A DNA stretch of 63,144 nucleotides, the filler included, from Reclinomonas americana ATCC 50394 (Eukaryota), in the NCBI GenBank assembly GCA_048213135.1. It is 4 parts of 2 records of this genome, joined end to end, with 100 filler letters (N's around TTAATTAATTAA, not from the genome) between each part and the next. Parts side by side here need not be neighbours in the genome. Positions count along the whole stretch, not along the records: positions 1 to 14,627 come from PS015287.1; 3 more parts are not named here. One strand, given 5' to 3'. The first letter of the stretch is position 1. Each line of letters begins with the position of its first letter. Below the pieces are notes generated by a model that was given only the letters and a program-made list of their open reading frames with translations, made no database searches and had not been told where the DNA came from. Made by a program: the position numbers and the translations under genes. This document shows, piece after piece, positions 1 through 14,257 of the stretch.

Positions 1-1499
1 ACTCCTCGCGCAGAAGAAGAAGAAGTAAAAGGAGATGAAAATGCAAAGTCACAGTGGCAAACGGTGGCGAATGTGTTGCTGGCTAGAGAAAGAGAATGCG
101 TTTTCGCCATGTAAATCGCATTCTGTAAACACTCTTCTTTCCTTCTTGAGAGAGAATGGAGTGGCGTGGATCGACTCCCTCCTCGCTCTCCTCTTCCACC
201 TCTGCGCACGCACACCACTCCTCGTGCACAAGAAGAAGATGAAGAAGTAAAAGGGGGCAATGAAAATGCAAAGTCACAGTGGCAAGCTGTGGCGAATGTG
301 TTGGTGGCAACAGAGAGAGTGCGTTTTCTCATGTAAATCGCGCGCATTCTGTAGACACACACTTTTCCTCTTCTTGAGAGAGAATGGAGTGGCGTGGATC
401 GACTCCCTCCTCGCTCTCCTCTTACACCTCTCTGCGCATGCACACCACTCCTCGCGCAGAAGAAGAAGAAGTAAAAGGAGATGAAAATGCAAAGTCACAG
501 TGGCAAACTGTGGCGAATGTGTTGGTGGCAACCGAGAGAATGCGTTTTCTCATGTAAATCGCATTCTGTAGACGCACTTTTCCTCTTCTTGAGAGAGAAT
601 GGAGTGGCGTGGATCGACTCCCTCCTCGCTCTCCTCTTACACCTCTCTGCGCACGCACACCNNNNNNNNNNNNNNNNNNNNNNNNNNNNNNNNNNNNNNN
701 NNNNNNNNNNNNNNNNNNNNNNNNNNNNNNNNNNNNNNNNNNNNNNNNNNNNNNNNNNNNNNNNNNNNNNNNNNNNNNNNNNNNNNNNNNNNNNNNNNNN
801 NNNNNNNNNNNNNNNNNNNNNNNNNNNNNNNNNNNNNNNNNNNNNNNNNNNNNNNNNNNNNNNNNNNNNNNNNNNNNNNNNNNNNNNNNNNNNNNNNNNN
901 NNNNNNNNNNNNNNNNNNNNNNNNNNNNNNNNNNNNNNNNNNNNNNNNNNNNNNNNNNNNNNNNNNNNNNNNNNNNNNNNNNNNNNNNNNNNNNNNNNNN
1001 NNNNNNNNNNNNNNNNNNNNNNNNNNNNNNNNNNNNNNNNNNNNNNNNNNNNNNNNNNNNNNNNNNNNNNNNNNNNNNNNNNNNNNNNNNNNNNNNNNNN
1101 NNNNNNNNNNNNNNNNNNNNNNNNNNNNNNNNNNNNNNNNNNNNNNNNNNNNNNNNNNNNNNNNNNNNNNNNNNNNNNNNNNNNNNNNNNNNNNNNNNNN
1201 NNNNNNACTCCTCGCGCAGAAGAAGAAGAAGTAAAAGGAGATGAAAATGCAAAGTCACAGTGGCAAACTGTGGCGAATGTGTTGGTGGCAACCGAGAGAA
1301 TGCGTTTTCTCATGTAAATCGCATTCTGTAGACGCACTTTTCCTCTTCTTGAGAGAGAATGGAGTGGCGCGGATCGACTCCCTCCTCACTCTCCTCTTAC
1401 ACCTCTCTGCGCACGCACACTCCTCGCGCAGAAGAAGAAGTAAAAGGAGATGAAAATGCAAAGTCTCAGTGGCAAACTGTGGCGAATGTGTTGGTGGCG
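1..1499 (+). repeat. Tandem repeat, ~220-bp unit (at least 4 full copies plus a partial, interrupted by an N gap); each unit includes a 3' splice site and the first ~65 nt of the next exon
   Basis: Unit 'ctcctcgcgcagaagaagaag...gatgaaaatgcaaagtcacagtggcaaactgtggcgaatgtgttggtggc...gcacgcacac' recurs at about 1, 220, 449, 1208 and 1420. Only the last copy continues into coding sequence. Confidence 0.9.
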
Positions 1500-1882
1500 G
1501 CGGCGAGTTGCAATGGAGTCGCACATTCGTTGTTGGGCAAGAGGCCGTCGGGGGCGACGCGGTGAGTGAGAGAGAGAGAGGGAATGAGTGAGTGAGTGTG
1601 TGTGTGAGAGAGAGTGTGTGTGAGTGTTTGTGAGTGTGTGTGAGTGTGTGTGTGGGCGAGAGTGAGAGAGAGAGAGAGAGAGTCTCACACATGCATTCTT
1701 TTAATCTCCCGCGCGCTGTCTCTCTCACTCTCACTCATTCACACTCGCGCTCACTCACTCACACATACTCTCTCTCCTCTCTCACGCACTCAATCATTGG
1801 CACCTAAGTCGTCGCCTTAGGCGTCTCTCAGTTGCCTAGGATCCTTGACTCACTCTCTCTCACTCTCTCCCACACTCACACG

Positions 1883-1938
<56 letters not shown>

Positions 1939-12100: not shown

Positions 12101-13537
12101 GCGTTGTCTCCACTCCCTCACTGTCTCTCGCCACAGACTGAATGCCGAGGAGACCGTGTCCACTATTCCGGTGCGTCTTATCCCTCCATTTCCCGCTTTT
12201 ATGCCTCGCCACTCATGCACTCCATCGCAGCTCCGCGGCAAGGTGATTTCGATTGCCGAGATCCCGCCTGGCCTCGCGTACGGATGTTCGCAGCTGCTGC
12301 TCGAGCACATGTACAAGAGCCTGCCGTCCACTTCGCGACGACACGTTGAGTGGCGCTGTTTCTTCTCAGCAGAATTCTGTGGAGGCTAATCTGCCATCTC
12401 TCTCTCACACAGCTCATCTGCGTCAACGAAGTGGTGTCACAATCGGTGCTGCCACCGCGGCAGTTTGTCGTCCTCTGCAACGATGGTGTCTACCTGATGG
12501 AGAAACCGCGCCCCATCGACAAGCTCGCGCGGCATTTGCGCCAGGGCGGGTCTCAGATGGTTCGTTGCAAAGGGTCGGTTCCAAATCACAGTTTCTCACC
12601 GCGAGTTACAGGCGATTGCCAACACACTCCCGCCGGCGGCTGAAGTGGCGGCCATGGCCATTGCGTTGTCGTCGCGCATCGCCACCGACTCGCTGCGTTT
12701 GGTGGCGCCGCATTACAGCGGAGTCGGTTGCGTGGTTATTGAATCGGCTCTGGTTTCCTTTGCGTGTCTCTTATTTTGCTCGTGCGCAGCGCAAGATGTG
12801 TGGGCGTCGAGTGTGATTCACGCTGCGGGGCAGTTGTCGCGTCGTGTTGGCGGAATGGCTTCGGAGGTGATTGATGAGGTGCGTGAGAGGGGGAAGTAGG
12901 AAAGGGGAAGGGAGAGGGAGAGAGAGAGAGAGGCAAAGGGAAGAGAGTCCACCCAAGGACCATTCACAGCGAGATGTCGTTGAAGCTGAAGAGCGAGAGA
13001 GAGAGTCAAATAGAGAATTGCAGTTAAGTGACATATGCACTGGAGGACAGAGTGCGCACACTTTCGCTCTCGTGCATCAAGTTGATGACTGTTGTGCTTC
13101 TGATCTGTACCTGTGTTTCTCAATGTCTGTTCTTCTCCTGCTTCTCCTGCCACGTGTGAATTCATGTGGTTCTTTCTCTCTCCAGCCCGCGTTCGTCGAG
13201 GCATATTTCTGCTTGATCTCACCCTCTGCTGTCCTGATGCTTGTATTATTCGATGTCCGCACACTCCCTGCTCCCCCTGCGTTATGGGATCTCTCTCACC
13301 CACGCAGTCACTTCCATGCGGCGTGGTGTTCCATCCTTGATCTCTTTCTCGTCGACAAACGTATTGACGCTCGTGATCCGCTTGTGTTGCCCGTTTGCTT
13401 ATCTTCTCTCTTCCCGTGTGTGCTGGCATCATTTGTGGCACCCTTGATCTCCTCCCTCGCTCTCCTTCTCATTCTTCCCCTCTCGCTCTCCCCTCCTCGC
13501 TCTCCCCTCCTCGCTCTCCCCTCCTCGCTCTCCCTCG

Positions 13538-13571
<34 letters not shown>

Positions 13572-14257
13572 TCTCCTGTTTCCCTCCCCTTATTTGATCT
13601 CTCTCTCTCTCATACACCAACTGACTCCCACACTCATCGCCTGCGTTTCGGTATTCATCTCTCATTTGAATTACCCCTTCCCTCTCGCAGGCTGGCGTCC
13701 CTCAAGTGCAACTCTCCGACGAGTGCTCCGGGCTCCTGCGACTGACGGCTCGCATTCTCCGACCGTACTGGACCGAGCCTCCCGTCTTGGGCCCGTTTGT
13801 CAATGGTGCACTTTCCTTTCTATCGCTTCCTGCTCCACAGCTGTGTTGCTCATCACCCTGCTGCAGACGGCGGCGTCGAGGAGTGGATGCTCGGCTACTC
13901 GTCCGTGTCGGTGACGGCTGGAATACGCTCGCTATCGGCCTTGCTGGACACGGATGATATCCTTTGCACTCTTTGCTTGATTGCTGCGCTGTTTGCTGTT
14001 CATTGTCTGGCGGTTCGTTGACTCTATTGCCCTCCCCACTCTGGACAGCTGTCTCCGATCGCCTGGTATCCTCTGCGCAGATGGTTTGCCTGTGGTTGTG
14101 ATTGCTTGTTTGTGAAGCATTGTTGATTGACTTGTCACGGGCAGTGGGATTCGACGGTTCGGCGTGAGCTGCGTGAGCTGGTTCACGTCTCACTGCAGCT
14201 GCTTCGGTTCTTCGAAGTGTGTCGTCCGTACGAGGGGCATCGTGTGATCCAGAGAAC
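6503..14257 (+). CDS. NUP155: Nucleoporin Nup155/Nup170 (N-terminal beta-propeller and start of the helical region; 3' part lost at the contig end)
   Basis: About 20 short exons splice in frame, giving FCGLLPEINRAWTAIDNRLILWDY, IVNVGIVRPSPGVF, GTPQGRIFLAVEDGSLFEVVYEREDGWFQSRFRIVNWS, LYTLSQDSVITAYDL, NEVVSQSVLPPRQFVVLCNDGVYLMEKPRPIDKL and GLLRLTARILRPYW, all characteristic Nup155/Nup170 motifs. Confidence 0.92.
13957..14039 (+). other. U12-type (minor spliceosome) AT-AC intron
   Basis: 5' end ATATCCTTT (13957-13965), branch-like TTCGTTGAC (14014-14022), 3' end CAC at 14039. Removal restores the frame (LDTD-VWTAVSDRLVSSAQM), while the nearby GT donor leads to a stop. Confidence 0.75.

Follow-up and report, generated by a model that had tools for sequence, protein, structure and literature searches.

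Does the locus at the left end of a 63,144-nucleotide (nt) stretch of Reclinomonas americana DNA encode one protein, in which exons resembling a ubiquitin-specific protease (USP) are spliced in frame to the nucleoporin Nup155, or two ordinary neighbouring proteins? The stretch (hereafter the window) is from strain ATCC 50394 (assembly GCA_048213135.1) and consists of 4 parts of 2 records joined with 100-letter filler; positions 1-14,627 come from PS015287.1, and parts that adjoin in the window need not be neighbours in the genome. An earlier reading of this DNA, referred to below as the original prediction, had proposed a catalytically dead USP fold fused N-terminally to Nup155. Sequence alone cannot show one protein as opposed to two. 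On the one hand, an in-frame splice appears possible and is mildly favoured by arguments from exon structure; on the other, the TGA at 5945 and the in-frame ATG at 6497 would also suit two ordinary genes. We put the chance that a fused mRNA is made from the USP-like exons and Nup155 at roughly 45%. The exons on either side of the junction, and the junction itself, are listed here with the G+C content at the three codon positions (GC1, GC2 and GC3) where it was informative.

2238-2388, plus strand: USP-like exon found in a scan for coding-like sequence, with borders tctctcag/ and /gtgggc; GC1/GC2/GC3 0.64/0.44/0.82.
4407-4541, plus strand: USP-like exon with GT-AG borders; GC3 0.96.
4607-5029, plus strand: USP-like exon, putatively spanning a USP/UCH-type domain in its C-terminal half, His-box region included (Pfam UCH and Atlas).
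5095-5220, plus strand: USP-like exon with GT-AG borders; GC3 0.88; no Pfam family.
5726-5908, plus strand: exon for a long charged helix, phase 0 at both ends, with no stop and no ATG; GC1/GC2/GC3 0.75/0.48/0.84.
5909-6502, plus strand: intron or intergenic spacer, with a GTATGT donor, TGA at 5945-5947, a 12-nt repeat at 6017-6491, ATG at 6497-6499 and a CAG end at 6502.
6503-6652, plus strand: Nup155 exon for the N-terminal lead, with GT-AG borders; GC3 0.80.
6788-6854, plus strand: Nup155 exon with GT-AG borders, found in the coding-like scan; GC3 0.82.
6909-7009 (3' end approximate), plus strand: Nup155 exon with the conserved propeller signature (Nucleoporin_N).

Phase 0 is shared by the donor GTATGT at 5909 and the acceptor CAG that ends at 6502, just as had been claimed for this intron. 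The exons of 2238-7005, once joined, gave 443 codons with 0 stops, and this open joined frame speaks for the splice. The absence of stops across the spacer and the match of phase weigh little, because the repeat keeps the spacer open and a match of phase alone is expected by chance in 1 case of 3. The repeat is a 12-nt CT-rich unit present in 40 imperfect copies over 475 nt (6017-6491), and it accounts for the lack of stops across 5950-6496.

The arguments that favour the splice come from the exons themselves. In the final 12 codons of 5726-5908 every third position was G or C (GC3 12/12), against 4/12 in the 12 codons read through to TGA 5945; this drop at the donor has P of 7e-5, given the pooled GC3 of the exons (331/389). 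As a control, three genes of the window with clear stops kept GC3 at 9/12, 11/12 and 7/12 to their ends. Because GC3 breaks exactly at the donor and the exon lacks any ATG or stop of its own, 5726-5908 looks like an internal, not a terminal, exon. Its GC1/GC2/GC3 values, taken in the frame that matches the phase of both 5095-5220 and 6503-6652, resemble those of the neighbouring exons. On the acceptor side, AG occurs in the spacer solely at 5915, 5925, 5948, 6394 and 6501. The first three are too close to the donor; the one at 6501 is in phase, has a long pyrimidine tract upstream and is the only well-placed acceptor. Directly behind it, the first 14 codons of the Nup155 exon (6503-6544) showed GC3 of 14/14, which implies that translation starts at or before 6503, either at ATG 6497 or in an upstream exon.

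The same stretch can be read as two ordinary neighbours, in which the USP-like gene reads past an unused GTATGT to TGA 5945 and Nup155 starts at ATG 6497, its transcription beginning inside the CT-rich repeat or shortly upstream of it. We regard this arrangement as possible, if somewhat doubtful. The observations gathered in this paragraph and the next count against a fusion, as do the results on the USP-like module and the state of the assembly that are given with those subjects below. A stop, TGA 5945, lies 12 codons past the donor. The spacer contains ATG solely at 5911, 5932 and 6497; the last is the lone ATG between 5933 and 6544 (the only one in ~600 nt), is in frame and stands 5 nt before the acceptor. 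A start at this ATG would place the conserved propeller motif at residue 80 (by arithmetic on the exon model). The same query residue is residue 83, 100 or 104 in solved Nup155 chains, and the residue two later is 173 or 236 in two others. With ATG 6497 and a canonical N-terminal length, a complete and ordinary Nup155 start is present. Codon log-odds trained on the other genes of the window were -0.01/-0.08/-0.44 for the three frames of 5726-5908; being indecisive for this exon, they were replaced by the GC content per codon position used above. The pyrimidine content of the spacer (0.78, versus 0.53 in one clear same-strand intergenic spacer) is weak evidence for the splice, because seven model introns ranged from 0.32 to 0.78, two of them being purine-rich at 0.32-0.34, so composition is not diagnostic.

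Elsewhere in the window, two same-strand paralogues (47721-48284 and 48711-49259, both on the plus strand) are separated by only ~425 nt from stop to ATG, and both carry a pyrimidine tract and CAG 15-25 nt before the ATG. Tight gene spacing and acceptors beside start codons thus do occur in this genome, a further point for two genes, and the acceptor-like tracts suggest introns in the 5' untranslated region (5'-UTR) or trans-splicing. The paralogues encode a poly-Asn run and a Cys-rich C-terminus, belong to no Pfam family, and upon exact look-up in a collection of 15 billion proteins neither was present.

Other features of the junction are awkward for two genes. The 12-codon tail with GC3 of 4/12 (12/12 just upstream) would have to be coding, the consensus donor falls exactly at the break in coding signal, and the acceptor at 6502 is in phase. 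In addition, the spacer is wholly simple repeat, and of five poly(A)-type motifs sought in it none occurred, although this organism's own signal may differ. In a variant with two genes, the acceptor at 6502 would serve a 5'-UTR intron or a trans-spliced leader and Nup155 would start at ATG 6545. The 14 codons of 6503-6544 look translated, and ATG 6545 as the sole Nup155 start was ruled out on that ground.

A pure fusion, then, leaves the lone in-frame ATG to be explained, and two genes leave a consensus donor at the end of coding, an acceptor in phase and a 12-codon tail of non-coding appearance. Splicing of 5726-5908 to 6503-6652 with the ancestral Nup155 start still in place would fit the one set of signals as well as the other, and ATG 6497 would most simply be that start. 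Its survival suggests a fusion of recent date, or a locus from which stand-alone Nup155 is produced as well. That this organism has no Nup155 other than a constitutively produced form bearing a catalytically dead USP domain and a helical spacer at its N-terminus seems to us unlikely.

Under the fusion, 2238-7005 would belong to one transcription unit in which 5726-5908 is an internal exon and its GTATGT donor is joined to the acceptor CAG that ends at 6502. One mRNA or more would then encode a USP-like domain, a long helix and canonical Nup155, in that order. The fused protein would carry ~340 known extra residues before the propeller, with a helix of ~45 residues as a spacer. The predicted helical nature of that exon was borne out by an AlphaFold2 model, which returned one long helix at residues 13-59 with a predicted local distance difference test score (pLDDT) of 89. 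If made, the module would presumably act in binding or as a scaffold appendage at the N-terminus of an inner-ring nucleoporin, not in hydrolysis.

The downstream partner was identified by profile and structure-database searches. On the open reading frame (ORF) around 6909-7009, Pfam Nucleoporin_N reached 33.3 bits (cut-off 23.7, E 3e-08), and all 13 PDB matches of this ORF were to Nup155/Nup170/Nup157, the best being 9sob_D residues 83-113 (E 0.0015). Three exons are colinear, in genomic order, with human NUP155 residues 104-132, 241-302 and 489-523. The assignment of the sequence from 6503 on to Nup155/Nup170 is solid, in agreement with the original prediction. Beyond 7009, the following segments were assigned to the gene or may continue it.

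9992-10161, plus strand: Nup155 propeller exon; matches human NUP155 241-302 in the PDB by phmmer (E 6e-4), with 5 of 6 matches to Nup155.
10222-10399 (3' end approximate), plus strand: Nup155 propeller exon, called from frame and coding signal only; codon score 0.43, GC3 0.81.
12431-12538, plus strand: Nup155 exon; matches human NUP155 489-523 in the PDB by phmmer (E 0.0016), with 5 of 9 matches to Nup155.
13676-14252, plus strand: coding-like segments from the scan, which may continue Nup155.

The exon at 12431-12538 is the last portion of Nup155 with an identity confirmed by a search tool. No PDB match was found by phmmer for 6503-6652 or for two late exons from the segments at 13676-14252, and Pfam returned no family on 10222-10399. 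Nucleoporin_C, the C-terminal alpha-solenoid, was absent from the 29 plus-strand ORFs scanned between 11028 and 23572, so the window seems to hold just the N-terminal half of Nup155. The next gene, at ~15-22 kb, contains an fn3 domain (27.8 bits) and lies beyond the N's at 14628-14727. At 12900-15000 Nup155 seems to end after its propeller, which may reflect a scaffold mis-join or a missing piece.

This gap bears on another explanation, namely that the junction is an artefact of assembly: the 12-nt array was collapsed or mis-joined, with the result that the true last exon or exons of the USP-like gene, its 3' end and the true upstream region of Nup155 were deleted or replaced. Such an error would account for both the internal-exon look of 5726-5908 and the intact ATG of Nup155. 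The sequence is of draft quality, several of the 21 N runs in the window (14628-14727 among them) begin within CT microsatellites, and the junction itself is an imperfect tandem repeat of 475 nt, a place where collapse is possible; Nup155, as described, seems to lack its C-terminal half before the next gene. Against this stand the lack of any N gap in 5909-6502 and the distribution of the repeat: 31 of 32 matches to a 16-nt repeat pattern (2 mismatches allowed) fell at this site (6017-6449), and no second array was seen. It would also have to be by coincidence that an in-phase acceptor directly follows the ATG. We consider an artefact quite improbable.

The upstream partner is a chain of five coding-like exons on the plus strand within 2238-5908, with GT donors and AG acceptors throughout and with introns of exactly 65 nt on either side of 4607-5029. 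The exon at 2238-2388 is the first credible coding exon. It opens at an acceptor, so the USP-like gene is 5'-incomplete in the window, and any Cys box would lie outside the credible sequence. We read 5095-5220 as the end of the USP-like domain.

How USP-like the chain is varies from exon to exon. On 4607-5029, Pfam UCH (PF00443) gave E 0.0033 and 17.5 bits, below the cut-off of 23.9, aligning residues 50-132 with positions 147-231 of the 254-position profile; on the longer ORF around this exon, it gave E 0.0054 and 16.8 bits. Among its neighbours in the Atlas, a search by language model, the 10 best with a family were all UCH (top 0.93, recognition value 2352), and the top match shared only 134 features, a number usual for chance matches or remote kin. 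The exon thus appears USP-like by a weak but twice-supported signal in the C-terminal half of the domain. The other exons that had been assigned to the USP fold fared differently: Pfam found 0 families on 2238-2388, 4407-4541 and 5095-5220, and the Atlas returned no UCH for 4407-4541, where GST_C-type helical neighbours scored at most 0.81, at noise level.

Searches for relatives of the module are among the points against a fusion. Foldseek with a model of 4607-5029 gave 0 PDB matches at E <=0.001 and no USP among the matches listed; this result is uninformative, not negative, because the underlying single-sequence AlphaFold2 model was too poor to use (pLDDT 43.7). Employing phmmer, we found no USP in the PDB with the USP-like ORF, just three UFM1-type matches at E 0.5-1.3 that were taken as noise, and no credible relative among 1.84 billion representatives. 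In that collection the sole match to the USP-like part was P0001, a repetitive coiled-coil protein of 3944 amino acids matched over 20 stretches, which we attribute to chance. A word-index search with the USP-like ORF yielded 882 candidates, none at E <=0.001. At the same level, the word-index search gave none of 219 candidates for the Nup155 ORF and none of 1199 for an ammonium-transporter ORF of the window. These searches thus retrieved no relative, whether fused or not.

The original prediction had the USP boxes in the right order and the catalytic Cys and His apparently replaced; the claims on box order and on the Cys lose their footing with the proposed first exon, which is discarded below. 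By rules of motif and spacing, counted to the following conserved Trp and Asp, the position of the canonical His in 4607-5029 appears to be occupied by Ala, a His standing one residue before it, and the Asp is retained; 4407-4541 is presumably the 'QQD-box' region, an assignment made from the motif without support from any tool. As read from 4407-4541 and 4607-5029, the module would be minimal, with no visible zinc-ribbon cysteines. It appears highly divergent and has probably lost catalysis. We infer a dead USP from motif spacing, the credible sequence containing no Cys box, and this too counts against the proposal as first made. As a caution, USP53/54, long annotated as inactive, are reported to be active enzymes (10.1101/2024.07.07.602376).

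The left border of the locus accounts for the fate of the first exon that had been proposed.

1-1498, no strand assigned: 215-nt satellite array that borders the locus on the left and is broken at 662-1206 by a gap of 545 N.
1499-1561, plus strand: unique part of the proposed first exon; GC1/GC2/GC3 0.50/0.70/0.75 in the frame joining 2238, untypical; not credible as coding.

At 1-661, Tandem Repeats Finder (TRF) reported a period of 215, 3.0 copies and 87% matches between copies, and 1218-1498 shared 96% identity (271/281) with the satellite copy at 234-529. The first USP exon had been placed at 1432-1562. Half of this segment, up to 1498, is satellite; the ORF there (1401-1562) matched no Pfam family, and the only coding-like frame, 1505-1564, differs in phase from the frame that can be spliced to 2238-2388. 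We therefore discarded this exon. The satellite passes straight into the unique sequence of the discarded exon. Farther along, a 99-nt tandem repeat of 9.2 copies (3343-4261) lies inside the 2-kb intron between 2238-2388 and 4407-4541; it is open in several frames and mimics coding sequence in ORF lists.

With its 5' end missing and a satellite adjoining it, its weak similarity to USPs and no relatives found among the 1.84 billion representatives, the USP-like chain might be taken for a decaying or truncated remnant, read-through into Nup155 then being noise. Five exons with ~339 open codons, intact GT-AG splice sites and GC3 of 0.82-0.96 would be unexpected in a decayed pseudogene, and we hold this explanation to be highly improbable.

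Parts of the proposed arrangement are known from other systems. PAN2 and USP39/Sad1 contain catalytically inactive USP-like domains used as scaffolds. Similarly, the USP-type domain here has apparently substituted catalytic positions and would be embedded in a larger protein that is not a protease, whereas it is accompanied by neither the WD40 repeats nor the exonuclease of PAN2 and lacks the zinc-finger UBP of USP39; kinship to neither was demonstrated. Proteases of the Ulp1/SENP type, which act on ubiquitin-like (Ubl) proteins, dock at the nuclear pore. A fusion here would likewise bring a protease fold of the ubiquitin family to the pore, but Ulp1/SENP belong to another protease family, are active and are bound non-covalently, whereas a gene fusion is proposed for R. 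americana. In conjoined or read-through genes, an upstream donor is spliced to an acceptor where the downstream gene begins, and the start codon of that gene survives, as here. The difference here is that the upstream gene has no visible terminal exon, so that it would yield a complete product in the fused form alone.

Nup155/Nup170 is a core scaffold of the inner ring, with its N-terminal propeller at the pore membrane, and as far as the literature was searched we know of no enzyme-like domain on it. The gene described here shares the Nucleoporin_N signature with Nup155/Nup170/Nup157 and, started at ATG 6497, would have their canonical N-terminal lead; it differs in that it may carry ~340 extra N-terminal residues, and Nucleoporin_C was not found in the window. 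A USP or UCH domain on Nup155 was not found in the literature searched, which is a point for two genes. In the available text of a preprint on the Toxoplasma nuclear pore complex (NPC), ubiquitin, hydrolase and USP had 0 occurrences (PMC12407827), and the available text of PMC2951903 contained nothing relevant to a USP-Nup155 combination. The closest parallel in form is Nup434 of Plasmodium berghei, described as having a Nup155-like propeller after a long N-terminal region, with the similarity at residues 747-1112 of 3656; in the portion of that source available, which also mentions SENP1 at the NPC, no USP similarity is reported (PMC9601220). Compared by description, Nup434 is far more divergent than the Nup155 of R. 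americana.

A ubiquitin-binding module at the inner ring, as the original prediction had it, is speculation. If the sole Nup155 were constitutively made in the fused form, a module recognizing ubiquitin or Ubl proteins would be built into every inner-ring spoke beside the pore membrane. A built-in USP-like module would be a new means of tying the pore to signalling or quality control by the ubiquitin family, and would be further evidence for lineage-specific additions to protist pores, such as the long extension of Plasmodium Nup434 (PMC9601220). If the genes are separate, the locus would comprise an orphan, very divergent USP-like gene beside an ordinary Nup155, and would be of minor interest.

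Over the window as a whole, exons are GC-rich (GC3 ~0.8-0.9), and TRF found abundant CT and ACTC microsatellites in addition to larger tandem repeats. The introns at 5221-5390, 6653-6787 and 10400-10460 are G/A-rich just past the donor and pyrimidine-rich toward the end. The sense strand over whole genes is strongly C/T-skewed, with the AT skew reaching -0.59 at 8-10 kb, and the sign of the skew seems to track gene strand across the window. A coding scan of the minus strand showed only the mirror of plus-strand exons, and Rfam and tRNA scans of the window found none. The pattern of 44 N, 12 bases and 44 N at 14628-14727, 30119-30218 and 57201-57300 marks the places where the parts were joined with filler. 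Other genes recognized were a RING finger at 27865-28365 (minus strand, E 4e-07), a PRKCSH-like fragment at 42099-42422 (minus strand, E 2e-05) and an ammonium transporter exon at 54696-55394 (minus strand, E 6e-12). At 60172-63142, at least three highly similar WD40-repeat ORFs, scoring up to 255.8 bits for WD40, are spread over both strands, and this cluster looks like a recent local expansion.

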